Numbered from the stretch's first letter, positions 4,077 to 64,000 are shown. The stretch: DNA of 64,000 bases from an uncultured Gemmatimonadota bacterium (GCA_964626665.1 CAZVGK010000015.1:9443-73442); one strand, 5' to 3'. The notes: generated by a model from the letters alone, not told the origin. Made by a program: numbers and translations.

Positions 4077-7000
4077 TCACTTCAGTAAAATCATCTTCCT
4101 TGTCTCCACAAAATCCCCAGCTTTCAACCGATAAAAGTAAACCCCACTGGAGAAAGAACTTGCATCCCACCTGACCGATTTATATGCCGCCGTCTGTCTT
4201 CCATCTACCAAGGTTGCTACCTTCTGTCCAAGGACACCATACACTTCCAGCCTTACTTGACAGTCCCTTGGTATGCTATACCTGATCTCCGTAGTTGGAT
4301 TAAAAGGATTAGGATAATTCTGGGAAAGAGAAAAGCTCTCAGGCAACTTCTCAGTCCCATTATTGGAAATACCTACAAACAGGCAACTGGCCTCATTAGA
4401 ATACTCGCTCTCATTACCGGCAAAGTCAAAGGCAGAAACCTGATAGTAATAGGTGGCACCGCTGATGACCGCAGTATCACCGTAGAGTGTATCTATGGTT
4501 GTTCCTAGAAGGCTTAAGGTAGTATCTGGGTTAGTCCTTCTGTAGATGGCATAATAACGGAAGTCCTCATCTGGGATAGCATTCCAAACCAGGTTTATGG
4601 ATGTATCCCCTGAAGCGGCCATCAGCCCCTGGGGTGTTGAAGGGGCCAGGTTGTCTACCGAATAGCCACTGTCAATTTCGGAGACGAAGTAGACTAATGG
4701 TTCAGGAGTCATAGCGGAGATAAAGAATACTGACCAGCAAACACCTTCAACTGTGGAATCACACAGAGTAGGTGCAACGTAGTTGTATACCTCCTGTCCA
4801 CAGGCAGGCACGGCCAAGACATAATCCCAATCCCCTGGAGGGAAGGATTGCAAGGAAGGAATATTATCCTCTTTAGCCTCTTTACCAACCAATGCAACTG
4901 AGAGGCTGTCAATTCTTCTCCATAAGCAGTATTCTGTGATGGTAACCGTATCCCCTGGGCTATCGTATTCGGAGGCATACCAGGAGACTCTCACCTCCCG
5001 TCCCTGGTCATTGGGCACATCGGTGATAGATTTGATAATCGGCGGATTCCATACGGTATTGACGATGAAACTCCTCACCGGTATCCATTCCCCATACTCA
5101 AACCCATCATAGGCTCTTGCCCTCCACCAGTATGGCCATTCCTCCTCCAGGGGAACATCAACCTGCCAACTGGTGTAATCCGTCCCCTCCTGCACCCCAG
5201 TTACCGATGTAATAACGCTGTCCATAAGGCTATCGCTGTAAACCACGAAGCTATAGGTCAAGGTATCCCCCTCACCATCAGAGCTGTTGGAAACAATCAG
5301 TATTACTATGCTATCACCCAGGATTTGGCCGTCATAAGGGCTTAAGACTATTGGTATGGTGGGAAGGCTGTTCATCCTGAAGGATAGATTGGCCCAACTT
5401 GACCACAGTCCGCCACTATTCTTGACTTTTGCCCTCAAGTAGTAGATCTCCCCATCAACCAAGGAACTTCCAGCATAGGTTACAAAGGTGTCCGCACTGC
5501 TCGCCTCCCCTATATCCCACATCTCAGCAACCGTCCAGTCGTCATCAGTTCCTACCTGAACCTGGAAGGTAGCTTGAGCCAAAGTCCCTGGGTCGGAATA
5601 TGACCAGGCGATTAACGGGTTGTGAGTAATCAGATGTTCTATATCCTCCGAACCCCCAATGTCCAGATTGGAAATAAACGGGTGTGGGCTTTCACCCACC
5701 AGAACGGTGGTGAACTTGGTGGAATCCACATTAGAGGTTATGGTGACCATTTCCCCAACTGTAGCTCCAATGGATATACCTTCCACGCTGACGGAGTCTA
5801 TCAAAGCAGTTCCCCTGAATATGCCGGAGATGGAATCAGTTTCCGTAAGAGCAACACGAATACCCAATGTATCCGTTGAATCACTGGTTATTGTAACTGT
5901 GGTCTGGTTAACACAAATCGAATCGCTGTCTTCACCCTCAAGCTGGATATACATTGTCGCCCCGACCCACAGATCGATGGTTAAATCATCCGTGTAAGCG
6001 CCATCTGCTTTCAGCACCACACAATACACAGAATCCGGTTCACCTACTGTGGGAGAGGTAAGAATAGGATCATAAAGAACTTTCCCTAAGGTTAAGTCAT
6101 TATAGTAATCATAAATTCTGTCATCAACCGAATCTGTATTTGTTGTGCCCCACCAGTTGTAGGTGGCATCAATGTCATTACTGTTATTATGAAGGTAAAT
6201 CTCATATTCACCCTCGTTCACAAGATTGTTATAGTTTATCGTAGGCGTTGCGTCACCATAGCTCTGGCAGTAAATACCAGCCCCATTACCAGAAGCAGAA
6301 TTCGCAGTGATGGTGTTGCCGGTAATAGTTGGAGCTGCCCTGAAGCAGACAATACCACCCCCATTACCAGAAGCAGAATTCCCAGTGATGGTGTTGCCAG
6401 TAATAGTTGGACATGCGTTCACAAACTCGCAGAAAATACCACCCCCCGCATCAGCGGAATTCCCACTAATGGTGTTGTCGGTAATAGTTGGGGATGAATT
6501 GTAGCAGAAAATACCACCCCCCTCATCAGCGGAATTCCCAGTGATGGTGTTGCCAATAACAACAGTTGGGTTAGAACAATAGAGGTAAATACCACCCCCA
6601 TGTCGGCAAGTCCACCAATCGCCATTCCCAGTTATGGTGTTGCCGGTAATGGTGGGAGAGGACCAATCGCAGCAAATACCAGCCCCATCTGAAGAAGCAG
6701 AATTTCCAGTGATGGTGTTGCCAGTAATAGTTGGAGATGAAGACCCTCCGAAGTAAATACCACCGCCATAACTACCGGAATTCCCAGTGATGGTATTGTG
6801 ACTAATGAACGGTGAAGCGTTGTCACCATGGATTGCACCGTCGTAATTTGTCCCTGGGATATCTCCTCCATACTCAATCCTACAATACTCAACAATGCAC
6901 CCACTAACATAATTGCCCAGTGTATCCAAAACTACATCCACGCTGGTATCAACAAACTTGATACTTCCCCAGTCCCTTGGTTGTGGCGTTGCATTGTTAC

Positions 7001-47191: not shown

Positions 47192-47207
47192 TGGCATAAA
47201 ATTTGCA
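47192..47207 (+). promoter_or_regulatory. Sigma54 -24/-12 promoter candidate upstream of the MltD-like gene
   Basis: TGGCATAAAATTTGCA (GG-N10-GC). Confidence 0.55.
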
Positions 47208-47362
47208 TTATCAACAACAGGTAGATAGGTCTTGGTTAAGCGTGGGCCATATTCGGATCAACCCAAGGGGTTTCTCTAAAGAGACTTTCGCATTGAAACC
47301 CCAAAAAAGGGTTGACAAGGGAAAATGGATATAGTATTTTGAACTTTTGCCGGGAGGGAAAA

Positions 47363-49192
47363 GTGAGTCTCAAAAAACTTCCCCCTTTATTGCCTCTCTT
47401 TTTTCTGTTTATCGGCTGTTTCTCGCTCCCGCAGCGGAGCATCAAAGAGGAGAAACTCCCTCCTCCACCTCTTCCGCAAGTTAAATTAGGGGAGGATGAG
47501 TTTGCTCAAGGGGAACTGCAGAGGGCAAGAGGGCTTTATGCTTTGGGGGTGAGGGCGATTGGCGAACGGAAGTGGGACAAGGCACAAGAGCACTTTGAAA
47601 AAGCCATAGAGATCTTAGTTGATCTGGATTTGGATGAGGAGCACCCCCAATTGGTGGGCCAGTTTGACCTTCTTCTCAATCAGATCTCCAGCGATTACCG
47701 GCGGGCCTTAGCCTCCATTGAGGAGTTGCCCCCTGGGATTTCCGTCTCTGCAGTGATGGAACGGCTCCAGGAGATGAAGATCTCCCATAAGGAGATAGAA
47801 TCTCTCTACTTCCCGCTATTTGACCCCACTCGTTACGATTTTCCCGTTTGCTGGAATGAAGAGGTGAAAAGGTGTATCCATTTCTACCAAACCACTGGTC
47901 GGAAACCCTTTGTTGCCTGGTTGAAGAGATCCGGGAAATATGTCTCTATGATGAGGGAGATCCTTAAGGAGGCAGGGTTGCCACAGGATTTGGTGTACCT
48001 TGCCCTCATAGAAAGTGGATTCAACCCCTATGCTTACTCCTGGGCCCGTGCTGTGGGGCCCTGGCAGTTTATCTATTCAACTGGCCGACTCTTTGGCTTG
48101 CAGAGAAACTGGTGGATGGACGAGAGAAGGGATCCAGAGAAGTCAACCAGGGCTGCGGCCGCTTATCTTTCGGAGCTCTATCAGGAGTTTAAATCCTGGC
48201 CTTTAGCCATTGCGGCCTACAACTGCGGAAAGGGGAGGGTCCACCGGGCTATCCGTAAATTTAAGACGAGGGACTTCTGGTCATTGCCCCTTCCCAGGCA
48301 GACCAGAAATTATGCCCCCTCCTATATGGCAGCTACTATAATCGCCAAAGACCCAGAGATATATGGTTTCAACATAAAGGTAGACAAGCCCCTTTCCTGG
48401 GATCTCGTCTGGGTGGATGGATCAACTGACTTGCGGGTAGCGGCAAAATGTGCGGGGACCACCTATAAAAGGATTAAGGAGTTAAATCCTGAGCTTTCCC
48501 GTTGGTGTACTCCCCCGCGGATCAAGAGATATGCGCTGCGGATTCCCGCTGGCAGGAAAGGGATGTTTGAGGCCAACTATTCGCGGCTTCCTGCAAAGAA
48601 GAAGGTTGTCTGGGACAGACACAGGGTCAAAAGAGGGGAGACCCTTTCCCAAATAGCTGAAGAATATCATACTTCTGTCTGGGCGATTGTCGATGCCAAT
48701 TCCTTGAAGAACAGACATCGGATCATCGCCGGGGATTACCTGCTCATCCCAGTTCCCCCATCCCGCAGCTCTCGTGTAACCCATACGAAAAAGGGTGTTC
48801 CCACTCCCTCCCAGCAGGGCAAGAAGATTGTCTATAAGGTAAAGAAGGGGAATACATTGAGCCAAATTGCCGCAGAGTTTGGGGTGAAGAGCGGGGACTT
48901 GAGGAAATGGAACGGGTTACAGAAGGGTAGGTTTATCTATCCCGGACAGGAGCTTGGTATCTGGGTAGAGCCGGGTTTCCGGCGCTTATCCTCTAACTTG
49001 GAGGAAAGTGACGGAAAGGGCAAGGAAAAGTTGATTTATGTTGTACGCACCGGGGATACCCTTTGGGATATTGCCCGCGGATTTGGGGTAGAGGTGAAGG
49101 ATCTCTGCCGTTGGAATGACCTCCACCCCAGACAGAGGATCTACCCAGGGGAGAAACTCCAGATTTTTGTGCAAATGGACAAAACCCTGTAA
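47363..49192 (+). CDS. MltD-like lytic transglycosylase with three LysM domains
   Basis: LALIESGFNP, AVGPWQF, AAYNCGKG; three LysM repeats; lipoprotein-like signal. Confidence 0.9.
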   Translation: MSLKKLPPLLPLFFLFIGCFSLPQRSIKEEKLPPPPLPQVKLGEDEFAQGELQRARGLYALGVRAIGERKWDKAQEHFEKAIEILVDLDLDEEHPQLVGQFDLLLNQISSDYRRALASIEELPPGISVSAVMERLQEMKISHKEIESLYFPLFDPTRYDFPVCWNEEVKRCIHFYQTTGRKPFVAWLKRSGKYVSMMREILKEAGLPQDLVYLALIESGFNPYAYSWARAVGPWQFIYSTGRLFGLQRNWWMDERRDPEKSTRAAAAYLSELYQEFKSWPLAIAAYNCGKGRVHRAIRKFKTRDFWSLPLPRQTRNYAPSYMAATIIAKDPEIYGFNIKVDKPLSWDLVWVDGSTDLRVAAKCAGTTYKRIKELNPELSRWCTPPRIKRYALRIPAGRKGMFEANYSRLPAKKKVVWDRHRVKRGETLSQIAEEYHTSVWAIVDANSLKNRHRIIAGDYLLIPVPPSRSSRVTHTKKGVPTPSQQGKKIVYKVKKGNTLSQIAAEFGVKSGDLRKWNGLQKGRFIYPGQELGIWVEPGFRRLSSNLEESDGKGKEKLIYVVRTGDTLWDIARGFGVEVKDLCRWNDLHPRQRIYPGEKLQIFVQMDKTL

Positions 49193-52400: not shown

Positions 52401-53756
52401 ATGAAAGAACTGCCTAAACCAGCCCAAATCTATATCTCCGGGATAATACTAATTGGCCTTGCCTATCTCGGCTACTTTTCCCAAAAGATGGTCCTCCCCC
52501 AGTGGTGGGAACTTCTCTTTTGGGCAGCACTTATTATTTTAACTAAACTCCAGTCCATCCCACTGCCGAGAGGAGGGGCCACGATGACCGTGTCATCAGC
52601 TCTCTACTTTGCCCTCATTCCCCTTTATGGTCCCGTTGTCACCGCCTGGTTGGCAATTCCTGGCGATGTAGTTTTGAATGGTATAATAAAGAGGAAACCC
52701 CTTTATAGGGTTGAATTCAACGCCCTGCAACTCGTCATCTCCATCGGCCTAGCTGGATTGATCTACCAACATCTTGGGGGTCAATTTATGCCCACCAACT
52801 ACAGCAGAATCATTTTACCATTCACTTTTTCCGCCATAACCTTCTTTCTGGCAAATACCGTTTTAGTGAGCATAGCTATCCACCTAATGGAGAAGATATC
52901 AACCTTGCGGATATGGTGGGTGAATTACAGTTGGACATCTGTGGACCTTTTAGCCCTTGGCCCTCTGGGTTTCCTTTTGACCCTGGTCTACATCCAAATT
53001 GGTCCCTGGGCAGTTTTCATCTGTATTGCCCCCATAATTCTGGCCCGATACTCCTTCAAGCTCTATACGGATCTTCGCCAATCTTATATCAACTCCATTA
53101 CCGCTTTATCTGCCGCCTTAGATGCCAGCGATCCCTATACCCACGGTCACTCCAACCGAGTGGCGGAGAACGCCGAGAAGGTAGCCAGGCAGATGGGGCT
53201 TTCCGAGGGGAAGATCGAAAGGGTAAAATTTGCGGGACAGTTGCATGACATCGGAAAGATAGGCCTTGATGTTAATATCCTTAATAAACCTGGCTCTTTA
53301 AATAACCAAGACTGGGAGGAGATGAAAAAGCATCCGGCCAAAGGTGCTGAGATAGTGAAGGGACTTAAGCCACCCATTTATGACATAGTTATGGCTCATC
53401 AGGAACATTATAATGGAGCAGGCTACCCGGCAAAACTAAAGGAAGACCATATACCTATAGAGGCTCGTATAATCCATGTCTGCGATGCTTTTGAGGCGAT
53501 GACCTCTGACCGACCTTACCGTTTTGCCCTTCCCCTTAGCCAAGCCGTCGACGAGTTGAGAAGGGAATCGGGAAAGCAATTTGACCCTAAGGTAGTGGAG
53601 GCCTTTCTCAAGTTAATGGAGAAGAGCGAGCTGATAATCGAGAGTGAGCGTAAACACAAGTTTACCGAGATAAAGAAAGGCCTCAGTAAAGACCTCATAG
53701 TCCTTAACGAAGCTTCACCTTCCCGGCCACAGGACGGCCAGACCACCCTGGAATGA
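52401..53756 (+). CDS. Membrane-bound HD-GYP phosphodiesterase
   Basis: Multi-TM N-terminus; DPYTHGHS, LHDIGK, HQEHYNGAGYP, DAFEAMTSDRPY. Confidence 0.92.
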   Translation: MKELPKPAQIYISGIILIGLAYLGYFSQKMVLPQWWELLFWAALIILTKLQSIPLPRGGATMTVSSALYFALIPLYGPVVTAWLAIPGDVVLNGIIKRKPLYRVEFNALQLVISIGLAGLIYQHLGGQFMPTNYSRIILPFTFSAITFFLANTVLVSIAIHLMEKISTLRIWWVNYSWTSVDLLALGPLGFLLTLVYIQIGPWAVFICIAPIILARYSFKLYTDLRQSYINSITALSAALDASDPYTHGHSNRVAENAEKVARQMGLSEGKIERVKFAGQLHDIGKIGLDVNILNKPGSLNNQDWEEMKKHPAKGAEIVKGLKPPIYDIVMAHQEHYNGAGYPAKLKEDHIPIEARIIHVCDAFEAMTSDRPYRFALPLSQAVDELRRESGKQFDPKVVEAFLKLMEKSELIIESERKHKFTEIKKGLSKDLIVLNEASPSRPQDGQTTLE

Positions 53757-54147
53757 GGTGGCAGAAGCACTCTCCCGGTGCTGGTAGGGCTCCTGCCCTG
53801 ACGGAAGATAGAATCTTCTACCCGACTTTAGTCGGGGTCTTTAGGGCTTAAGCCCTTTGGAATGCTGTGACTCCTGTCACAGCATCTGTCAACAGGAGTT
53901 ACCACACTCCATAATAACCCGCACTAAAGTGCGGTAGAATCTACGTCTGTCTGCGTGAACCTGCGATTTCTACCCGGTTTAGCCGAGGGTTTCCTCACCA
54001 CGGATAACCACGGAATCACATAGAAAGATAGGGATCGGGGGTCAAGAATAACCGGCATAAACCCCATTTTTAATTCTCAATTCTCAATTCTCAATTGCCT
54101 TCGCATTGTTACCCTGCAAAAAAAATTCTGAGAAGATCAAAAAAAGC

Positions 54148-54176
54148 TTGACAGGAAGTGATTTTAGCCTTATATT
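54148..54176 (+). promoter_or_regulatory. Sigma70 promoter for the small secreted protein / activator pair
   Basis: TTGACA-17-TATATT. Confidence 0.6.
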
Positions 54177-54398
54177 TACACTTGAAATTTGAAATAGCCC
54201 ACAAAGTTGCGGGTTTTTTGTGCTGGTAGGGCTTTTGCCCTGACGAACAAGGCTTTTTGTGGGATGGGGAGAAACTCTAATCGAGGTTGAGGTAGCAGAA
54301 CAGGGTTCTGCCACTTCGGTTGTTGCAACCAATAGTTTTTTATTCTTAATTCTACATTCTTCATTTTACATTCAAAATTCACTGTGAGGTGAGATAAG

Positions 54399-54725
54399 AT
54401 GAATAGAAAAATATGGGTTGGTTTGCTGGTCTTGGCCTTTATGCTCGGTTCTGTGAGTGGCTTCTGGTCAAAGCCAGTGGTGGCTAATACAGGTTCAGAA
54501 CGCAGGGTTATGCTCTGCGCCGCTGAGCCGTGGCATAACGATTTATATCAATCAGGCAACCCTACTCCTCCTGATACTTCAGGATTGAGCACCACTGAAA
54601 ATCAGGTCAAGCTGCAAAATGCCCAGCAGAGTTCTCCCCCTAACAAGACTGATTCCAGAGCCAGGAACCTTTTCTACCGCATCCTTCATACTCTCTGGGG
54701 AGTAATCTTCCTTGAATCCTTCTGA
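54399..54725 (+). CDS. Small secreted protein, candidate signalling-peptide precursor
   Basis: GAGGTG RBS; signal peptide ending PVVA; AAEPWHND; low-complexity linker; amphipathic C-terminal helix. Confidence 0.8.
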   Translation: MNRKIWVGLLVLAFMLGSVSGFWSKPVVANTGSERRVMLCAAEPWHNDLYQSGNPTPPDTSGLSTTENQVKLQNAQQSSPPNKTDSRARNLFYRILHTLWGVIFLESF

Positions 54726-54737
54726 GAGGAGCCCAAG

Positions 54738-57737
54738 ATGAAAGCCAAAAGTCACGGTTCCAAGGAAATGCTGAAGCCAGCCGATGAGCTCTTCCAGGGG
54801 GGCGAGATTGTTCGGGCATTGGAAGGCTATCAGAGGGTAAGGGAGGAATATGGCTCATCAGTGGATTCCACCACTTTGAATCTACTGAGGAGGAAGGAGC
54901 TTGAGTGTCTGTATAGGTTGGGTAGGTATGAGGAATCTCTGGAGTCCATAGAGGAGTTAAGATCTGGCTATGAGTCAGAGGGGGACAAAAGGCAGTTAGG
55001 CTGGTTGCTTTTTGTGGAAGCATTTTGTCTCCTGCAACTATCCAGGTTAGAAGAAGGGAAAAAGGCGGGTGAGGAAGCAAGGGCACTGCTGGAGAATACA
55101 GCCTACAACTTGGAATATGGTCTTGCCTTGAAAACTTTAGCCAACATCCACATAGGCTTGGGTGATTTAAAGGAAGCCAAGAGGTTATTGATGCATAGCC
55201 TCTCCGCCTTTAGTAGGGTTTCTCCTTTGCCTGAGAGGAAAGTCGTCAGCGCACAGAACCTTCTGGGTCAGGTATGTTTTATGAGGGGTGAGACCAAGGA
55301 GGCGTTGGCGCATCTTAACGAGGCTCTGGGGCTTTGTAGGGAGGGGGGCAGCAAAGCCCAAGAAGCGATGGTCAAGGGCAACCTCGGAACTGTGCATCGT
55401 CGCGCTGCTGTAGATTGGCCACTTGCCTCTAAGCTGTTGAGGTCGAGCCTGAAACTCTATGAAGAGTTGGGTAATGACTTAGAGATTTCCAGGGGAGCCA
55501 CCGCCCTGGCGAGGCTTTACATCCTCCAGAGGAGATGGGACGGAGTGTCTGAACTCTTAAATCGGGCCAAGAGATTAGCCGAAGAGGGTGATTATCAGAG
55601 GGAGCAGGCGATGGTTGAGGAGACAAGGGGCTGGCTGGAGATAGCCCTGGCTCAGCGGGAGGGCGGCTCCCATCTGAAACTTGCTGAAGAGGCTCTGCTC
55701 AAGGCCCTGCAGATTGGCTACCGGATAGCCCCAGAGGGTGATGTGGTGATGGAGGCAAGTGAGAGGTTAGGCTGGGTCTGTCTTATGCGGGGGAGTCTGG
55801 ATGGTGCTTTAAGCTATGGGGAGAGAAGCCTGAGGCTTGCCCGGCGGGTAGGCTCTGTTTATGACGAGGGCTTGGCCCACAGGCTCTTAGGAGCAATATA
55901 TGAGGCCAAAGAGGAGAGAGGAAAGGCAAGAGATCATTTTGCCCGGAGCATCTCCCTCTTGGAGAAGGCAGAGGCCCAATATGACCTAGCCGTCAGTCTC
56001 CTTTATAGTGGCAAGGTTTTGGTTGAGGATGGGGGGACTCGTTCAGAGGGATTTGGACAGATACTTCAGGCCAGGAAAATATTTGAGACCCTCAAGGTCA
56101 GCTACTGGTTGGGGAGAAGCTGGATAGAGGAGGCCAGGGGAAAGGTTCAGGGGAGGGATTTTGACAAGGCATCCCAATGCCTGGCCACTGCTAAGGAGGT
56201 TCTGAAGGGTTCAGGGGAGAAGGAGGCACTGAAGGAAATTGTCGGGGTGAGGGCTGAATTGGATGGGATTGCGGCTAAAGTTTCCCTCAGCGTAAAGGAG
56301 GAGATTAACCTCTTGGAGGAACTCAGTCAGCCCTCCAATAGTCTTGATAGCCTGTTGAAGGCCTTGATGAAGAAAAGCTCTGCGGAGAGGGCCATTATTG
56401 GTGTGCGGGGATCTGTTGGTGGGTTTGAACTCAAGGCATATCGGGCAATAGATGAAGCCAAAGCCAGGAATCTCTTAGACAAGATAGGTTCTCTGAATGG
56501 GGATCTGCTTAGACCCCGGATACCTATCTTCTCCAGCTTGGTCCCGGAGGATTCAAGGCTCATCTCTTTGAAAGGGGAGGAGATGGGCTCTCTGATGATG
56601 GTTCCCTTGGGGATGGATGAGGAACTTGACGGCCTGCTTTATGTTGACCGGCTCTCTAATAAGCCTTTTCAGCAGAAGGACTTGAATTTCTTCGTTCTCT
56701 CAGCGGGACTTATCCAGCTTAAGGTAGCAGAGCTACAAAAGGAAGAACTGAAGAAGGAGGTAAAGAGTCTAAGGGAGAGGTTGGAGGAGAAGTATGGCTT
56801 TGGGAACATAGTCACCCTCAACCCTAAGATGGAGCAGGCTCTAAGAACCGCCCAAAGCTTCAGGGATTCCGATCTTCCCATTCTCATCCAGGGGGAGACG
56901 GGGACCGGGAAGGAGCTTATGGCCAGGGCCATTCACTATAGCAGCCAGAGGAGGGGCAAGAGCTTTGTGCCGGTAGACTGTGCTGCCTTCACCGATACCC
57001 TCTTGGAGAGCGAGCTCTTTGGCCACAAGAAGGGTTCCTTCACCAATGCCATAACCGATGAGAAGGGTCTCTTTGAGGAGGCTCAGGGAGGGACTCTCTT
57101 CCTGGATGAGGTGTTCAATGCCAGTGAAGAGTTGCAGGCCAAGCTTCTCAGGGTATTAGAGGAGATGGAGGTAAGGAAGATAGGGGAGACAAAGGCCCGG
57201 AAGGTGGAGGTGAGCATAATCTCGGCCACCAACAAGAACTTGGAGAGGATGGTAAAAGCTGGTAAGTTCCGCAAGGATCTCTACTACAGGCTAACAGGGG
57301 TAGAGATAAAGCTTCCCCCCCTAAGGGAGAGGAAGGAGGATATCCCGCCGCTCGTCTATCATTTCCTGGGACTTTCCGCTCAGAGAAGGAAAGATGAGGT
57401 AAAGGGAGTAACCCAGGAGGCGATGGATCTTCTCACTGCCTATGATTGGCCGGGGAATGTGAGGGAACTGAAAAACGAGGTAGAGAGAGTAGCTATCCTG
57501 GCCGAAGGTGGCTGGATCACCCCAGCGGTATTGTCAGAGGGGATAAGGGCAGGAGAGTTGGATGAACAGGATCTTTCACTAAACCTTGAGGTAAAGGGAA
57601 CGTTAAAGGAGACGGAAAAGAGGATCATTCAAGAGGCGATAAGGAAAGCGGGGGGTTCGAAATATCAGGCTTTAAAGCTATTGGGGATGAGTAAAAGCAC
57701 ATTATATCGCAAGGTCAAGGAGTATAGGATAGATTAG
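54738..57737 (+). CDS. TPR-GAF-AAA+-Fis sigma54-dependent activator
   Basis: About 500 aa of TPRs, GAF-like segment, GETGTGKE, ESELFGHKKGSFTNA, LFLDE, WPGNVRELKN, C-terminal HTH. Confidence 0.93.
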   Translation: MKAKSHGSKEMLKPADELFQGGEIVRALEGYQRVREEYGSSVDSTTLNLLRRKELECLYRLGRYEESLESIEELRSGYESEGDKRQLGWLLFVEAFCLLQLSRLEEGKKAGEEARALLENTAYNLEYGLALKTLANIHIGLGDLKEAKRLLMHSLSAFSRVSPLPERKVVSAQNLLGQVCFMRGETKEALAHLNEALGLCREGGSKAQEAMVKGNLGTVHRRAAVDWPLASKLLRSSLKLYEELGNDLEISRGATALARLYILQRRWDGVSELLNRAKRLAEEGDYQREQAMVEETRGWLEIALAQREGGSHLKLAEEALLKALQIGYRIAPEGDVVMEASERLGWVCLMRGSLDGALSYGERSLRLARRVGSVYDEGLAHRLLGAIYEAKEERGKARDHFARSISLLEKAEAQYDLAVSLLYSGKVLVEDGGTRSEGFGQILQARKIFETLKVSYWLGRSWIEEARGKVQGRDFDKASQCLATAKEVLKGSGEKEALKEIVGVRAELDGIAAKVSLSVKEEINLLEELSQPSNSLDSLLKALMKKSSAERAIIGVRGSVGGFELKAYRAIDEAKARNLLDKIGSLNGDLLRPRIPIFSSLVPEDSRLISLKGEEMGSLMMVPLGMDEELDGLLYVDRLSNKPFQQKDLNFFVLSAGLIQLKVAELQKEELKKEVKSLRERLEEKYGFGNIVTLNPKMEQALRTAQSFRDSDLPILIQGETGTGKELMARAIHYSSQRRGKSFVPVDCAAFTDTLLESELFGHKKGSFTNAITDEKGLFEEAQGGTLFLDEVFNASEELQAKLLRVLEEMEVRKIGETKARKVEVSIISATNKNLERMVKAGKFRKDLYYRLTGVEIKLPPLRERKEDIPPLVYHFLGLSAQRRKDEVKGVTQEAMDLLTAYDWPGNVRELKNEVERVAILAEGGWITPAVLSEGIRAGELDEQDLSLNLEVKGTLKETEKRIIQEAIRKAGGSKYQALKLLGMSKSTLYRKVKEYRID

Positions 57738-57738
57738 G

Positions 57739-57945
57739 TTCCTATTTTTGGGAATAGCCCCATTTTTGGGAATTTGATTTATCTTCTTATTTCAAAGCGA
57801 GTTTCGGACTTAAGGAGTCCCATTACTGGGACTCTTTTTTATTGTTTAGGCAGAGCTCTAATAAATGTATTCCGTAACTTCTTGATTTCAAACGGTTTAA
57901 TGGACAGACATTTGTGGCACGCTTTTCGCAGGCATAAATTATGCA
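57739..57945 (+). promoter_or_regulatory. Sigma54 promoter region: three palindromic UAS-like sites, IHF site, tandem -24/-12 boxes
   Basis: YCCYA-N4-TGGGA at 57739-54, 57757-72 and 57817-32; AATCAAGAAGTTA (minus strand, 57875-87); TGGCACGCTTTTCGCA 57915-30 and AGGCATAAATTATGCA 57930-45. Confidence 0.7.
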
Positions 57946-58588
57946 GGCTGAGGGTTTGGCCTTCCCCATCGGAAGGTTTTTCCTTCTCCTACGCCTGTTT
58001 ACTTTCCTCCAAAAGGGCAGGTGGGACAGGGCGAAAGTCCTGTCCTACCTGGGTGAGGGAATAAAAAAAGGTGGCAGAACCCCATTTTGCCAAAGAAGGG
58101 AGAGTTTTATTTCCTTAGCGCTCTTAGCGTCTCTGCGGTAAGTTATTAACCGCAAAGTCGCAAAGGACGCAAAGCTCACCAAGCCAAAGGCAAAAATGGG
58201 AAATTGGAAAATAAGAACATGGAAGTTGAAAAGAGCTGATAGCTGACTGCTGGAAACCGACCCCTGAGAACTGTTATATTAGGATTCGTGCCATTCGTTC
58301 ATTCGTGGTATTCGCGTTTAGGGCCTTTTCATTTTCAATTCTACATTCTTAATTCTCAATTGAATTCCCTTGGTGGGTGAGTAAGCTTCCGTATTTCTCC
58401 CGTGGCTTTGTGCGGGGGCAGAAAGCCCACCTGAGAAAAACCTTCACTTTAAGCAGAAAATTCAGATACGAGCCAAATTCAAAGTGTCTACGCTCCTTGT
58501 GGATGTTATCATCCACAAAAATTTCTTCCGTCAGGGCAGAGGACCCTATCACCTATAACCTATCACCTCTTTGGGAGGAGTTTGCCTT

Positions 58589-58750
58589 ATGGAATCTGAT
58601 GATGGTAAAAAACCGAGGCCAAAAATGAGCCTGGAACTTGACCAGGAGGAGCCACCGAAGAAGAAGGGATTGTGGCAAAAGCTCATCGAGGTGGCCGAAA
58701 GGCTTACCAGGGAGGAAGAGGGAAGAAACAGGGATCCGAGTGACTGGTAA
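58589..58750 (+). CDS. Small charged hypothetical protein (53 aa), not in the ORF track
   Basis: GGGAGGAG RBS; MESDDGKKPRPKMSLELDQEEPPKKKGLWQKLIEVAERLTREEEGRNRDPSDW*. Confidence 0.55.
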   Translation: MESDDGKKPRPKMSLELDQEEPPKKKGLWQKLIEVAERLTREEEGRNRDPSDW

Positions 58751-58944
58751 AGGGAATCTGCTATAAACTCCTTGACCTGGGAGATTGTGGGGAGTATAAA
58801 TTTGTGAGGCACACCTTACCAAGGGGGTGCAATTATGGAACAGATAAGATTTTTGGCGTTAGTGTTTGTATGGGGCATAGGTGAACAAAGCCACATACAG
58901 CAGTTTTACTCCAAGATAAATTTAGTTGAAACAAGGAGGAAGAA

Positions 58945-61128
58945 ATGCGTAAGATCAGTATAGGATTTATATTCTTGGCAATTATTTTGGCCCTGGCCGC
59001 TATTCCCCTATATGCCTCAGGTGCGGGGGACTACAAACTTGGGTTGACCTCGGTAAATCATGGAGAGGCCGAGCTTGTTGAAGATTCGGGTTTAAGGCAT
59101 CACATAGTATCAATTAAGGATATGGTTATTGATACGATGACCTGGACCAATGGCATCCCCTTTGCTGATTTGAGCCAATATTTGACCCCTTATGATAGCA
59201 CGGTAAATTGGTTTAAGCCTCTTGCCCCCTGTTCCCTGTATGAAATTGGAGGTATGTTTGCCAGCTCAGGGACTGCAAAGCTATTTGTCTGCAAATATGG
59301 ATACTCCTCCAGTGATTTCTCCTTCCCCTGGCCAGTAACCGATAATGAGTTGCCCCAGGAGATTCTTTGGACCGTTTCTGGAACAGGTGGTTGGGAAGAG
59401 AAGGATTTTAGGGAATATCCTTCAGATCAAGGATTCATCTTACAATTCCCAGGGGATAGCCTCTTCGCGGTAGGTTTTGGGTCTGACAGTGAGGCAGGGC
59501 CTCACATCTTTTATGACGATTATAGCCTGCACCCTGTGATCTATCCTGATGAGAATGGTGTATATCACTGTACTTCCCATTGGGGATTTACTTGGGGGCA
59601 CGACGGGAGTTGGGGCCCTCGCATTTTTTATCAGCGGCCCCCCAATCCTATGCCGATTTGGTGTCCTGAGCTTAATATGAGGGCAATTGTGAACTATTAT
59701 GAGGGTGTTCCTCCCTTCTTACAGGTTCTGAGGCAGAGGAGCAATACCTGGTTGAGGGAGAACATCAAGATAACTGCCTTGATGTTCGATTTTGATGGTT
59801 GGATCGCTGAGGCTACCTTGCATTATACCATGAGTGGTTCGGGAGATACAGCGGAAGTCCCTATGGTGCTATCCAAGGAAAAGAAAGGTAGCTACACCAC
59901 AGCTACCGGTTATCTTCCTGGTCCATTCTCTGTCGGTGATACGATAATCTACTGGTGCACCTGTGTGGACAACGATGGCAATTCTAACAGATCGCCATGG
60001 TCGGGGGAGGAAGTTAGATCTTTTATCATCAAGGAGCCGCAGAATCCAGGGGCAGGGATACTCCTGGTAGGAGATGGGAATGTTAGTAAGCAGAGGGCAG
60101 GGTATTATGAAGATTTGCTGGATAGGTTAGGCTACTCCTATGAGCCCACCTGGTTTACCGAGGAGAATTATGGGATAGACAGCTCGGTTGTCCTCCACAC
60201 CTATGAGGGAAAGGCATGGGATGCTATAATCTGGTTTGGCTGGGGATGTGGATACCTGCCTCAGCCGGATGGTTTGGAGGTTGATCATCCGCTCATCAGG
60301 TATCTGGATGGTGGAGGGAAGCTTTTTCTGGCTGATCAGGACTATTTCTGGAGGAAAGGTATAGAGACTGGGGTAGAGGTCAGTTTTGAGCCTGGGGGGT
60401 TTGCCTATGACTATCTGGGGGTTCAATCCTGTGTTAGCGATCCCAATATGCAGGATACTATCAGCCTTGGGGATACAACACTTTACGGTGTAGATGCAAG
60501 CGACCCTGTATCTGGCAGTTTCTATGATGATTCTGTGGAGCTACATTCAAGCTGTATAGGGGTTGCCAACTGGGCTGATTATACCCAGGCTACAAAAGAG
60601 GGAGTAGACATCTTCAAGGGAGGAGAAAGCGGAGAATACAGTGGCACCAGGTTAGGTGGTCCCAAAGGGTTTAAGACGGTCTTTCTACCCTGGTGTTTTG
60701 AAGCAATCGTTGACTGTGCGGATACAGGCACTCTCACCCCCCAGGCGGATACCCTGATGTGGAATATTCTCCATGATTGGTTTGAGCTGGAAGGTGTGCA
60801 GACAATTAGGCCTGGGTTTGTGCCTCGCTCTTTTTCTCTTTCCCAGAACTACCCCAATCCGTTCAATTCGACCACAGCTATCAGCTATCAGTTGTCAGTT
60901 GTCAGTTGTCAGCGGTCAGTTATCAGCTTAAAGGTTTACAACATCTTGGGAAAGGAGGTAAAAAAGCTGGTGGATAAACCACAGAAAGCAGGCTATTATG
61001 AGGTGACTTGGGACGGAAGGGATGATTCTGACAAGGAGGTGGCCAGTGGAGTATACTTTTGTAAGTTAAAGGTGCAAGGTGATAGGTCAAAGATAACAAA
61101 AGCAAGGAAGATGGTTTTGCTAAGGTAG
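58945..61128 (+). CDS. Secreted protein with FlgD/T9SS-type CTD
   Basis: Signal peptide; [10 protein letters not shown]...WDGRDDSDKEVASGVYF. Confidence 0.88.
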   Translation: MRKISIGFIFLAIILALAAIPLYASGAGDYKLGLTSVNHGEAELVEDSGLRHHIVSIKDMVIDTMTWTNGIPFADLSQYLTPYDSTVNWFKPLAPCSLYEIGGMFASSGTAKLFVCKYGYSSSDFSFPWPVTDNELPQEILWTVSGTGGWEEKDFREYPSDQGFILQFPGDSLFAVGFGSDSEAGPHIFYDDYSLHPVIYPDENGVYHCTSHWGFTWGHDGSWGPRIFYQRPPNPMPIWCPELNMRAIVNYYEGVPPFLQVLRQRSNTWLRENIKITALMFDFDGWIAEATLHYTMSGSGDTAEVPMVLSKEKKGSYTTATGYLPGPFSVGDTIIYWCTCVDNDGNSNRSPWSGEEVRSFIIKEPQNPGAGILLVGDGNVSKQRAGYYEDLLDRLGYSYEPTWFTEENYGIDSSVVLHTYEGKAWDAIIWFGWGCGYLPQPDGLEVDHPLIRYLDGGGKLFLADQDYFWRKGIETGVEVSFEPGGFAYDYLGVQSCVSDPNMQDTISLGDTTLYGVDASDPVSGSFYDDSVELHSSCIGVANWADYTQATKEGVDIFKGGESGEYSGTRLGGPKGFKTVFLPWCFEAIVDCADTGTLTPQADTLMWNILHDWFELEGVQTIRPGFVPRSFSLSQNYPNPFNSTTAISYQLSVVSCQRSVISLKVYNILGKEVKKLVDKPQKAGYYEVTWDGRDDSDKEVASGVYFCKLKVQGDRSKITKARKMVLLR

Positions 61129-61210
61129 CTTAAATTCAGAGAGGAGAAGAGAGCAATGACAGACAAGGATTGGTTGATGAATGTGGAAAATGAGACAAGG
61201 GGAGGTAAAG

Positions 61211-62641
61211 ATGCCTATTAGAAGAAAGCTTTTGAGGGAAATTGTTCTTGTGGTCTGTTTCTTTATCTTGATTTCCCAAAGTCTCCTCTTCGCCTGGACA
61301 ACGCCGGTGAATATCTCCAATACCACAGGACACTCAAGATTCGCTTCATTAGCCGTGGATAGATATGGTCATATTCATGTGGTTTGGGAGGATGATACTT
61401 CAGGGAACAACGAGGTTCTCTATTGCTTCTCTGGTGGAGAGGCCTGGCATCCCCCTGTCAATGTCTCCAACGACCCAACGGACTCGGAAAGATCGGACAT
61501 AACGGTGGATGCCCTGGGACAACTCCATGTGGCCTGGAAGGATCACCAGTCCGGGGAGATATACTGGACTTTTTACGATGGAACTTCCTGGTCTTCTCCG
61601 GTGAATATCTCCAACAATCCCGGTTACTCCACCTGCCCCAGTTTAGCGGCTGATGATTCAGGCAGGGTCTATATTGTTTGGCACGACATCGGGGGGGGGC
61701 AATCTGACATCTACTTCAGTAGCTACGATGGGACCTCCTGGTTAACACCGCAGAATGTCACCAATGATGCGCTGGACTCTGCCTATCCCGATATAATCGT
61801 TGACTCCAAGGGATATGTGCATTTGGTATGGATGAACTATGGTTTGGACATAGAGGCATATTACTCGAAATACGATGGGATATCCTGGTCAAGTTGGGTT
61901 AATGTCTCTAATCTTGAAGGATACTCCTGCGATCCAAAGATAGCCCTGGATTCTCAGGATCATCCTCATGTGGTCTGGGAGGAACGTGAGCACGGTTACG
62001 AGGTTTATTACACCTATTTCGATGGAGAGGATTGGACTGTTCCCTATAAACTTTCCCGGACAAATAGCTACCGTCCTGCGTTAGCGCTTGATTCTGAGGA
62101 CAGAGGCCATGTAGTATGGGGTGGAGCAAGTAATGAGATATACTACACCTTTAGGAGCGACACTTCCTGGTCTGTGCCTTTTGATATAGCGGATACGTCT
62201 GGGAGAAACTGCTTATGTCCAGATATAGCTATAGATTCAACCCATCTTCATGTAGTATGGACTAAAGCCATTGATCGGACTCGTGCTGAGATTTACTACA
62301 GCAGCCATAAGTTGAGTGGAATAGAGCCAGGGCGGTGGAGGCCATTTCCAAGGGGGTATAAGCTGGAACAGTGTTATCCCAATCCGTTTAATGCAAATAC
62401 AGCTATCAGCTATCAGTTGTCAGTTGTCAGCGGTCAGCGATCGGCAGTCAGCTTAAAGGTTTACAACATCTTGGGAAAGGAGGTGAGAACCTTAGTTGAC
62501 CAGGAGCAAAGGGGGGGAAGGCATCAAGTGATCTGGGATGGAGGAAACAATCAAGGAAAGGAGGTGGCCAGTGGAGTATATCTTTACCGGCTAAAGGCCG
62601 GCGAATTTACCGCAGCAAGGAAGATGGTTTTATTAAGGTAG
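61211..62641 (+). CDS. Secreted beta-propeller (BNR/sialidase-like repeats) protein with FlgD/T9SS-type CTD
   Basis: Repeated WSSPVNISN...P.LAVD..G..HVVW units; CYPNPFN CTD. Confidence 0.88.
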   Translation: MPIRRKLLREIVLVVCFFILISQSLLFAWTTPVNISNTTGHSRFASLAVDRYGHIHVVWEDDTSGNNEVLYCFSGGEAWHPPVNVSNDPTDSERSDITVDALGQLHVAWKDHQSGEIYWTFYDGTSWSSPVNISNNPGYSTCPSLAADDSGRVYIVWHDIGGGQSDIYFSSYDGTSWLTPQNVTNDALDSAYPDIIVDSKGYVHLVWMNYGLDIEAYYSKYDGISWSSWVNVSNLEGYSCDPKIALDSQDHPHVVWEEREHGYEVYYTYFDGEDWTVPYKLSRTNSYRPALALDSEDRGHVVWGGASNEIYYTFRSDTSWSVPFDIADTSGRNCLCPDIAIDSTHLHVVWTKAIDRTRAEIYYSSHKLSGIEPGRWRPFPRGYKLEQCYPNPFNANTAISYQLSVVSGQRSAVSLKVYNILGKEVRTLVDQEQRGGRHQVIWDGGNNQGKEVASGVYLYRLKAGEFTAARKMVLLR

Positions 62642-62667
62642 GTTAAGTTAAAGAGGAGGAAGGAACA

Positions 62668-64000
62668 ATGAGAGCGCAGAGAGTATTCATCACAGCCTTA
62701 TTAGGGATCATAGTGGCCCTGCTGATGGTCCAGGCCTCTCTGGCCAATGATCCCAAGCAGGTAGGGGTATTGATTTGTGGGTCTGAGGTAGGGTTTGCTA
62801 AGGCTGATTCATCCAAGGGGCTGTGGCCGGTGAAGGAGGAGGAAGGAAGATTGGTGACTGAGTTCTGGAATGATAGCTATTTGATGTGGGAGATACTCTA
62901 TCTGAACCAATTTGATAATGATAAAATCCATGTGCTCTATGGAAAGGGAAAGGACTATCCGTCAAATTGGCGTCGTTACCAGGCTCCAGAAGAAATTGGT
63001 GAGATCACCGACACTTCCGCCTACCCCTCCGATGTGGCCAACATCTTCACCTCGTTGGCCGAGGGGAATCCTGAACAGGGGATAGAGCCAATGACCGATG
63101 AGGATCTTCTCTTCTGCTGGACATTTGACCATGGGGCAACGGGTTCCACATTCAGGATCCTGGATTCCTCAGAGCCGGAGGATCCCCAGGCGGTTGGAAA
63201 GTGTCATTACCGGACCGGTATGGCCTATAGCCTTTTGGAGGGACCAGTGGTAGAATGTGGGATAGCGATTTCAGGGAATTATGCTTATGTTACCTCCGGC
63301 TTTCGGGGGGTCTTAGTATTGGACATCTCTGATCCTCAAAACCCCAGGAGGATAGGTCGCTATGGCTGGGGATTTAAAGATGCCTACGACATAGCGGTTA
63401 GGGATACCTTAGCCTATGTAGGCCTGAGGTATTGGAAAAATCCTCCTTTTAAGGCTTATCTCGACGTTCTTAATATCTCGGATCCAGAGAACCTCCAACA
63501 AGTTGGCTCAATTTATCTTGGAACTGGTAGCATTAGGTCTGTTTCTATCCAGGATACCTGTGCCTACTTAGCTGCTCCTGCAGGCCTTTCTGTTGTAGAT
63601 ATCTCAGATCCCACCCATCTAAGTGAGATAGGATCTTGCCCACTGCCGCAAGCCGGGATGGGAGTTGATATCGCAGGCTCTTATGCCTATGTGTCTATCG
63701 GGATAAGCTCTTTTTATATAGTGGATATCTCCGATCCTCAAAATCCTTTGAGCCTGGGCTCCTGTTCAACTGAATCTGGGACTCATAAGGTTGCTGTCTC
63801 TGGGGAATATGCCTTTGTAACGACTTTGGAAGGGGTGAATGCCATAAGCATTGCCGATCCTGATAGTCCCTTTGTAGTAGATTTTTTGCGATTGCCAGCT
63901 CAGGCACGGGATATAGCGATTTCAGGCGGGAATGCTTATGTTGCTGATTTTACAGGTGGGGTTCAGATAATAGATATCTCTGACCCGCAGAACCTTACCC
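62668..64000 (+). CDS. Secreted protein with clan CD (C13/caspase-like) peptidase N-terminal part followed by LVIVD repeats; runs off the window
   Basis: GAGGAGG RBS; signal peptide; EFWNDSYLMWEIL...IHVLYGKG...LLFCWTFDHG; repeated LVLDISDP / YAYV units; frame open to the window end. Confidence 0.8.
   Translation, partial: MRAQRVFITALLGIIVALLMVQASLANDPKQVGVLICGSEVGFAKADSSKGLWPVKEEEGRLVTEFWNDSYLMWEILYLNQFDNDKIHVLYGKGKDYPSNWRRYQAPEEIGEITDTSAYPSDVANIFTSLAEGNPEQGIEPMTDEDLLFCWTFDHGATGSTFRILDSSEPEDPQAVGKCHYRTGMAYSLLEGPVVECGIAISGNYAYVTSGFRGVLVLDISDPQNPRRIGRYGWGFKDAYDIAVRDTLAYVGLRYWKNPPFKAYLDVLNISDPENLQQVGSIYLGTGSIRSVSIQDTCAYLAAPAGLSVVDISDPTHLSEIGSCPLPQAGMGVDIAGSYAYVSIGISSFYIVDISDPQNPLSLGSCSTESGTHKVAVSGEYAFVTTLEGVNAISIADPDSPFVVDFLRLPAQARDIAISGGNAYVADFTGGVQIIDISDPQNLT

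Follow-up and report, generated by a model that had tools for sequence, protein, structure and literature searches.

A recurrent gene cassette pairing a small, predicted exported protein with a tetratricopeptide-repeat sigma-54 activator in an uncultured Gemmatimonadota bacterium

A 64,000-nucleotide (nt) stretch of DNA from an uncultured Gemmatimonadota bacterium (GCA_964626665.1, CAZVGK010000015.1:9443-73442; the whole stretch is called the window) carries one copy of a multi-copy regulatory cassette. The core of the cassette is a pair of genes in which a small protein with a predicted Sec signal precedes a cytoplasmic activator of sigma-54-dependent transcription, the sensor of which consists of tetratricopeptide repeats (TPRs). 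The pair is followed by a sigma-54 promoter and by genes for cargo of the type IX secretion system (T9SS). The module is real and conserved and has apparently escaped description so far; by its appearance a signaling cassette, it is read here as a new peptide/TPR-sensing variant. The favored explanation, to which a probability of roughly 0.4 is assigned, is that the small protein provides the cognate ligand of the TPR activator, with return of a peptide to the cytoplasm.

The window lies on contig C15 and reaches the end of that contig; the genome, of 3.17 Mb, is 99.65% complete. All features of the cassette lie on the plus strand. The small open reading frame (ORF) encodes 108 amino acids (54399-54725), and its stop codon is separated by 12 nt from the ATG, at 54738, of the gene for the 999-residue activator (54738-57737). 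An earlier note on this DNA, made from the sequence alone, had described this pair, an activator composed of TPR, GAF, sigma-54 AAA+, and helix-turn-helix (HTH) domains, and a sigma-54 promoter directly downstream. The gene pair was recovered at the same coordinates, the domain order is supported by Pfam matches, by an AlphaFold2 model, and by a GAF domain that exceeds the cut-off in a paralogue, and the promoter, with its -24 GG and -12 GC elements, was located at 57915-57930; its sequence, TGGCACGCTTTTCGCA, has one mismatch to TGGCAC-N5-TTGCW. Ahead of the two-gene operon lies a sigma-70-type promoter-like site (54148-54176; TTGACA, 17 nt, TATATT), a candidate by consensus match alone, which agrees at 11 of 12 hexamer positions and is the best such site within 53700-59000.

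Judged from hydropathy and from the cleavage-site pattern, the small protein is predicted to be exported by the Sec pathway, with a signal peptide of approximately residues 1-29 (54399-54485). Its hydrophobic N-terminus scores a KD15 of 2.42, and VVA, ahead of NTG, forms a small-x-small site; averaged over 53 family members, the KD15 of the corresponding segment is 2.5, and small-x-small sites again precede the mature part. The sole invariant columns across these 53 aligned members are A42, P44, and W45, which belong to the motif AAEPW (residues 41-45, 54519-54533). Near the mature N-terminus the motif takes the form xPW(D/E/S/H), and the residues after the tryptophan vary by subfamily. AlphaFold2, supplied with the 53-sequence alignment, placed a helix at residues 3-22, left residues 23-65 unstructured, and modeled a basic-aromatic C-terminal helix at residues 83-104 (54645-54710), with a mean predicted local distance difference test (pLDDT) score of 63. 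A low-complexity, disordered linker lies between AAEPW and the C-terminal helix. The motif therefore occupies a stretch left unstructured in the model, as expected of a short linear motif.

The six copies of the small protein in its own genome are 102-118 residues long, and all but one of the 53 aligned members fall between 101 and 122. The window copy belongs to no family in Pfam or NCBIfam. A profile of the family, searched against 5.8 billion proteins, retrieved 91 clusters of ∼100-120 residues without a Pfam domain, the sole name among them being 'hypothetical protein'. Longer, fused forms were absent at E-values up to 0.001, which is weak evidence, and a Protein Atlas search with the small protein gave a best score of 0.83, a lead only, with no named cluster. 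Two other descriptions of the protein were considered and rejected. As a lipoprotein, it would depend on a cysteine three residues before AEPW that is not conserved, other members having Met, Glu, or Asn there, and that is remote from the hydrophobic core. As a protein anchored by its C-terminus, it would need a more hydrophobic segment than is present in the clade of the window (mean best KD18 0.57) or in the more distant clade described below, in which one of 15 distinct proteins has a KD19 of 1.74 and the other 14 do not exceed 1.4; these values are below the usual transmembrane range.

The activator is an ordinary member of the sigma-54 enhancer-binding proteins. Pfam places TPR_12 in six stretches (95 bits) together with TPR_MalT, followed by Sigma54_activat (PF00158, 219 bits), AAA_lid_14, and HTH_8 (40.6 bits). 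The AlphaFold2 model of residues 1-690 (pLDDT 89.5) contains 25 helices over residues 2-492, a long helix at 495-530, and an alpha/beta domain at 536-645. In this model the sensor (residues 1-492, 54738-56213) appears as a superhelix of about 12 repeats, so that the TPR module alone takes up ∼490 residues. The alpha/beta domain (56343-56672) is GAF-like; GAF stays below the Pfam cut-off in the window activator (19.1 vs 22.4 bits) and passes it in one paralogue (GAF_3 28.2 vs 27; GAF 26.5 vs 22.4). The AAA+ sigma-54 interaction domain (residues 692-857, 56811-57308), with a Walker A motif at residue 719 and a GSFTNA loop at residue 766 that is a variant of the GAFTGA type, is followed by the AAA lid and by HTH_8 (residues 955-996, 57600-57725). 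The protein thus shows the hallmarks of the NtrC family, namely an AAA+ domain with a GAFTGA-type loop and a Fis-type HTH, alongside rpoN in the genome and a -24/-12 promoter nearby. No receiver domain was present among its Pfam matches, and no signal peptide or membrane segment was noted in its sequence. Besides a single rpoN, 16 full sigma-54 activators occur in the genome. Invariant asparagines in the TPRs of the activator, which we take to be the ordinary NxLG positions of TPR_12-type repeats, had been considered as a peptide-binding 'Asn ladder'; this idea was dropped, as the positions are not diagnostic.

The pair recurs throughout one genus. The GTDB sample of the phylum comprised seven genomes, three of a single genus and four of the other (sister) family. 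Copies of the small ORF number 6, 13, and 5 in the three genomes of the genus and are absent from the four sister-family genomes. A TPR activator lies immediately 3' on the same strand in 23 of these 24 loci, the single exception being a truncated small-ORF copy that overlaps a cargo gene; strong TPR-activator matches (6, 13, and 4) correspond one to one with the small ORFs. In the genome of the window itself, the five paralogues of the small protein all stand directly 5' of a long TPR activator, and a contig end truncates one of these activators. The 12-nt gap of the window gives way to overlaps in some paralogues. Many modules are found at contig ends, as expected for repeated cassettes. A search with a four-sequence TPR alignment returned 4 loci, one of them a weak cyanobacterial TPR match.

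The position of the promoter is likewise repeated. A sigma-54-like site lies 3' of the activator in 14 of 21 modules, in all 14 at 175-303 nt past the end of the activator frame (two of these activators are split by frame breaks, and the distance is then measured from the second fragment). Among the seven modules without such a site, one has just 38 nt of downstream DNA, one carries a degenerate TTGT variant, and another has its site 3.8 kb further on, ahead of its copy of a short charged ORF described below. Strict sigma-54 sites number 22 over both strands of the 3.17-Mb genome. As the pair recurs in nearly every locus and strict sites are this few, the arrangement is far beyond chance. The genes that follow the output part of the modules encode T9SS sorting domains, beta-helix proteins, BNR_4 repeats, and, in module C12, Peptidase_C25.

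A few copies show irregular frames. In G002 contig C20 (L052) the small ORF and the activator share one frame with a single TGA between them, and the activator is split into two ORFs in G002 C161 and G001 C98; these breaks could be sequencing or assembly errors, or decaying copies. The cargo genes of the modules on G000 C15 and C39 (window 58945-62641 vs L009 7660-11117) resemble close paralogues, the N-termini of the first cargo proteins being nearly identical by eye, yet the activators are only 31% identical, so cargo operons and regulators have been reshuffled or converted.

The pairing predates the genus. Searched for with the TPR part of the activator, distant TPR-GAF-sigma-54 proteins appear at 24-27% identity (about 26%); they are represented here by P0106 and its relatives from metagenome contigs, of which 19 loci hold a full-length activator. 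In 18 of the 19, a same-strand ORF of 79-121 residues lies upstream, 18-157 nt from the activator gene. These 18 small proteins have a hydrophobic N-terminus (KD12 2.6-3.7) and a [P/S]W[D/E] motif at residue 24-35, 2-6 residues past the likely cleavage site, compared with about 15 residues in the clade of the window. The nineteenth locus has a signal-peptide ORF with PFD in place of the motif. The mature proteins of the distant clade are strongly acidic, with a hydrophobic-aromatic segment near the C-terminus that is often followed by a variable tail. The question raised in the earlier note, whether homologous activators are preceded by a signal-peptide ORF with an xPW motif, is answered in the affirmative at 23 of 24 loci of the genus and at 18 of 19 loci of the distant clade. 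By an exhaustive profile search, the TPR-sigma-54 architecture is a common one, a Walker A motif and a GAFTGA-like loop following the TPR part in 68 of the best 150 representatives (50% identity). Among them, a subclass of activators of ∼780-815 residues (P0164, P0172, P0181, P0184, and others) matches the profile mainly over positions 29-505 and seems to be without the GAF-like domain.

The output of the cassette begins 3' of the activator. A terminator-like hairpin and T-run (57812-57837; 11 pairs, then TTTATTGTTT) ends the operon of the small ORF and activator, and by eye several paralogous modules have a similar hairpin and T-run just 5' of their sigma-54 site. A strongly structured leader with several hairpins takes up the 196 nt that follow the sigma-54 promoter (57935-58130); its minimum free energy is -81 kcal/mol (z -4.33), and none of 200 shuffles folds as well. 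The sequence class of the leader is common to modules C12, G001_C111, and G001_C98, and the region 53700-59000 matched no Rfam family at E-values up to 1. Two direct copies of ATTTTTGGGAAT occur at 57738-57775, just after the activator stop and 21 nt apart from start to start; they lie ∼150 nt 5' of the sigma-54 site and are candidates for the enhancer of the window copy.

The first ORF of the sigma-54-driven unit had been missed by the earlier note. It lies between the promoter and the first cargo gene (58589-58750), has a GGAGG-type ribosome-binding site, and encodes a conserved, highly charged protein of 53 residues that has no signal peptide and ends in DPSDW. The family comprises 13 copies (the window and 12 others) in modules of genomes G000, G001, and G002, with lengths of 48-60 residues, about half of them charged. 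Each of the 13 has a GGAGG-type ribosome-binding site, and 11 end in (P/L/W)-x-D-W. No Pfam match above cut-off and no NCBIfam match was obtained for the 53-residue protein. Its acidic-tryptophan tail recalls the PW(D/E) motif of the exported protein, and the thought that it could be a second, intracellular ligand of the TPRs is offered as an idea only.

At least three secreted proteins with C-terminal domains, one of them peptidase-like, had been assigned to the downstream region. A secreted protein of 727 residues (58945-61128) carries a T9SS type A sorting domain (TIGR04183, 28.6 vs 23 bits) behind 632 N-terminal residues without a family, and a secreted BNR_4-repeat protein of 486 residues (61181-62641) carries another (34.9 vs 23 bits). 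The third is an LVIVD-repeat protein with a signal-peptide-like N-terminus (62668-64000); it is cut by the end of the window and contig, its C-terminus lies outside, and no sorting domain is visible. The peptidase-like assignment found no support in Pfam or NCBIfam within the window, the first 200 residues of the third cargo protein matching no family at E-values up to 10; a Peptidase_C25 protein does occur in the paralogous module C12. These two cargo details aside, what the earlier note described is confirmed, and its interpretation is supported in part. The genome encodes the T9SS translocon SprA (SprA_N, 128.7 bits), and with sorting domains in two of the three downstream proteins the cargo is of the T9SS type A family.

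In the circuit proposed here, a sigma-70-type promoter would drive a two-gene operon for the Sec-exported, disordered small protein and the cytoplasmic TPR-GAF-AAA+-HTH activator. The xPW(D/E/S/H) motif would be the cognate ligand of the TPR superhelix, most likely in the form of a peptide that is cut from the exported protein and then taken back up. Binding of this peptide would switch the ATPase of the activator on or off at the adjoining sigma-54 promoter, from which the structured leader, the 53-residue charged protein, and the T9SS cargo genes would be expressed. The cassette would in this manner couple an extracytoplasmic event, whether export, processing, or accumulation of the small protein, to the production of secreted proteins. 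The mode would resemble RRNPP peptide signaling, the differences being the sigma-54 output and the diderm host. The data show the obligate pairing of the genes, the invariance of the motif, the domain architecture, the position of the promoter, and the type of cargo. What we infer is the binding of the two products, the cutting and re-import of a peptide, the direction in which the promoter is regulated, and a link, if any, to cell density; the term 'quorum sensing' would be conjecture.

Several observations argue for direct contact between the two proteins. Foldseek, run with the TPR part against PDB, ranks LGN/Pins TPR domains highest (E ∼1e-9), in structures that contain a bound partner protein or peptide; the best 50 of at least 500 matches also include APPBP2, TSK, OGT, APC, and SKI. 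Passages of two studies (PMC5450233, PMC6214655) describe the TPR domains of kinesin light chain as recognizing tryptophan-acidic and tyrosine-acidic determinants. The cassette shares with kinesin light chain a tryptophan flanked by acidic residues as the would-be TPR ligand, and its repeats are assigned by Pfam to TPR_12; as judged from the model, the likeness to LGN/Pins (partners Inscuteable, NuMA, and Frmpd) and to kinesin light chain is one of fold and ligand type, and no homology is claimed beyond the TPR fold. The mature small protein was also co-folded with residues 1-690 of the activator, the TPR-GAF part, alongside three controls, a check that the earlier note had put forward. The score of 0.44 (runs 0.49, 0.44, and 0.39) exceeded the 0.00 of the best of the three controls but fell in the class 'weak support'. 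The mark used was reached by 58 of 80 solved complexes and by 2 of 110 mismatched pairs; the band up to 0.60 holds 7 of the 80 solved complexes plus both passing mismatches. The runs agree in at least 28% of contacts, with a partner pLDDT of at least 31, and no contacts were reported. The location of the motif in a disordered stretch also speaks for contact, and a receptor-ligand pair is plausible.

The return of a peptide faces a series of difficulties. According to the co-folding tool, a pass of the weak class turns out wrong in the majority of cases unless the pairing was likely to begin with, and no RRNPP receptor appears in the best 50 of the at least 500 Foldseek matches against PDB. The 99.65%-complete genome encodes no SBP_bac_5/OppA-type binding protein (PF00496) and no PTR2 transporter, and the classical RRNPP import route is therefore missing; one oligopeptide transporter of the OPT family is encoded and counts in favor of a returning peptide. 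The motif is identical in all 6-13 paralogues of a genome, so that parallel channels would cross-talk if the motif alone were the signal. The conserved basic-aromatic helix at the C-terminus of the small protein has no role in the model, the protein is longer than known propeptides, and its gene stands upstream of the receptor gene and is tightly coupled to it. Furthermore, the distant-clade pairs have neither an adjacent sigma-54 site nor T9SS cargo, from which it follows that the conserved core is the two genes and that the adjacent output is lineage-specific.

The activator has to meet RNA polymerase and DNA in the cytoplasm, whereas the small protein is predicted to leave it. Three routes could link the two: a returning peptide, binding before export, or a connection without direct contact. 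Binding before export would make the small protein a secretion-coupled anti- or co-activator. The TPRs would hold it through the motif beside the signal peptide until Sec export removed it, and the activator would report export capacity or backlog by a logic like that of FlgM/sigma-28 or ExsE, with re-import unnecessary. The conserved pairing, the motif, and the co-fold apply to this scheme as they do to peptide return, and it fits the absence of OppA, since no Opp system is needed. The tight coupling of the genes, 12 nt apart here and overlapping in paralogues, is in keeping with partners that encounter each other during synthesis; the products of the regulated genes leave by Sec and the T9SS as well; and in the distant clade, where the motif follows the predicted cleavage site by 2-6 residues, binding would compete with export. 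In the clade of the window, however, that distance is ∼15 residues, Sec export is constitutive and fast and hence a poor switch, and no fusion of small protein and activator was seen among longer proteins, itself weak evidence. We know of no precedent for a Sec substrate acting as such an anti- or co-activator, and the scheme is regarded as distinctly unlikely. A route without direct binding, which is unlikely, would confine the small protein to the periplasm or membrane, for example as an accessory or chaperone-like factor of the ZraP/CpxP kind or as a protease substrate. The TPR and GAF domains would then respond to a different cue, be it a small molecule, some other protein, or the 53-residue protein ending in DPSDW. 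The separate compartments of the two products, the GAF domain as a separate ligand site, and the co-fold class are in line with this, as is a 53-residue protein that lacks a signal peptide and has an acidic-tryptophan tail in 11 of 13 copies. Yet strict adjacency in two activator clades of ∼26% identity is hard to explain without an intimate functional link, and no membrane sensor, such as a histidine kinase or an anti-sigma-like protein, is present among the tabulated module ORFs of at least 200 residues. The 53-residue ORF is moreover absent beside the distant-clade pairs, as judged from ORFs of at least 100 residues and from intergenic distances, without a specific search.

The position of the small ORF also invites comparison with SecM, MifM, and VemP, in which a small ORF with an export signal lies directly 5' of the regulated gene. 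By analogy, a C-terminal segment of the small protein would stall the ribosome unless the N-terminus was pulled through Sec, and so set the translation of the activator. The layout agrees: an export signal, a variable linker, a conserved tryptophan/basic segment that in the clade of the window extends as far as the stop codon, and a putative target gene that starts 12 nt further on or overlaps. The details do not, and a secretion monitor of this kind is very improbable. The invariant element is the N-terminal PW motif and not the C-terminus. In the distant clade the gap widens to 18-157 nt and the C-terminal segment does not lie at the stop codon, a variable tail often following it. The RNA of the gene junction has no hairpin to speak of (z +1.38; 185 of 200 shuffles fold at least as well), and the downstream gene encodes a transcription activator rather than a secretion factor. 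The arrest-peptide idea therefore fails on the distant clade, on the lack of junction structure, and on the N-terminal location of the invariant part.

Among known systems, the cassette is closest in plan to RRNPP(A) signaling (Rap-Phr, NprR-NprX, PlcR-PapR, and AimR-AimP), in that the gene of a small protein with a Sec signal adjoins that of a cytoplasmic TPR regulator controlling its neighbors. Rap-Phr pairs are also multiplied into many paralogous pairs per genome, as the cassette is. Sections of PMC10075063 give the RRNPP signature as a Sec-secreted propeptide of 10-100 residues and a receptor of 250-500 residues with TPRs, encoded by direct neighbors, and describe cytoplasmic receptors paired with secreted propeptides as characteristic of Gram-positive Firmicutes and of the mobile elements of these bacteria. 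The likeness to RRNPP systems drawn in the earlier note holds for the predicted Sec signal, the TPRs of the receptor, and the direct adjacency of the genes. It does not hold for the lengths, with a small protein of 108 residues, marginally over the range, and an activator of 999, nor for the order of the genes, which is reversed, and the best 50 of at least 500 Foldseek matches include no RRNPP receptor. The receptor of the cassette furthermore adds a GAF domain and a sigma-54 AAA+ and HTH_8 output, the motif is near the mature N-terminus and identical in all paralogues, and the host is a diderm with a T9SS and without an OppA-type protein. The cassette is therefore not filed as a member of RRNPP, although it may work like one.

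Other comparisons concern the regulator and its output. ZraP and CpxP are small periplasmic accessory proteins tied to the envelope-stress regulators ZraSR and CpxAR, and ZraR is a sigma-54 activator. The cassette resembles these in the genetic link between a small exported protein and a regulator, and in the case of Zra in its sigma-54 output. The Zra and Cpx systems signal through a membrane histidine kinase, whereas the activator of the cassette lacks a receiver and no kinase is found among the module ORFs of at least 200 residues; the small protein is also disordered and unrelated in sequence. In the PEP-CTERM/exosortase system, as portrayed in parts of PMC1569441, a dedicated sigma-54 activator, PrsR, governs a family of proteins that share a C-terminal sorting signal. 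The PrsR-type model TIGR02915 of NCBIfam is among the weak matches of the activator studied here, and both systems place cargo with a C-terminal sorting signal under a dedicated sigma-54 activator. The cassette differs in its T9SS type A domain, in a TPR-GAF rather than a receiver sensor, in having no partner kinase, and in its multiple copies. Open-access full-text literature yielded no description of a sigma-54 activator with a TPR sensor that is paired with an exported small protein.

The conserved pair in two distant clades supplies a concrete candidate ligand for a large, uncharacterized class of enhancer-binding proteins, and a first handle on when uncultured salt-marsh bacteria make type IX secreted proteins. 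Even if the return of a peptide is wrong, the families of the small protein and of the 53-residue protein are new conserved components of a sigma-54 circuit. A broader version of peptide return draws on the spread of TPR-sigma-54 activators, of which the best 150 matches contain at least 68 clusters at 50% identity. Processed peptides of Sec-exported tryptophan-acidic proteins would return and be read by TPR-GAF sigma-54 activators across many uncultured lineages, with 6-13 parallel channels per genome of the genus, each gating its own type IX cargo operon, and the DPSDW-ended protein might mimic the signal inside the cell and feed back on the same TPR site. This version is unlikely; if true, it would be the diderm counterpart of RRNPP peptide communication.

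Additional elements were noted in and around the cassette. A second strict sigma-54 site of the window, TGGCATAAAATTTGCA (47192-47207, plus strand), is one of the 22 of the genome and lies ∼100 nt 5' of an ORF of 626 residues (47312-49192). The intergenic DNA around the cassette is rich in dispersed short repeats, at 53778-53803, 54220-54245, 54065-54109, 54341-54385, 58330-58374, and 58071-58090. These REP-like elements comprise GTGCTGGTAGGGCT..GCCCTGACG, AATTCTCAATTCT in runs, and palindromes of the type GTGGCAGAACCCC..TGCCAC.

A nearly invariant element of ∼70 nt lies right after the sigma-54 promoter in three orthologous modules (G000 C41, ∼6150-6270 on the minus strand, L049, and L055). 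The window holds a core copy at ∼58375-58430, a region without an Rfam match, and contig C10 holds two copies. On C41 the element is followed by a terminator hairpin, with no downstream gene on the same strand, and it looks like a sigma-54-dependent small RNA. In the same C41 module, and likewise in L049 and L055, a 14-nt palindrome is located ∼120 nt 5' of the -24 element. As CGTCAATTTTGGCG it is conserved in the two closer orthologues, and the third has it flipped (CGCCAAATTTGACG); it is a candidate enhancer site for the C41-type subfamily of activators.

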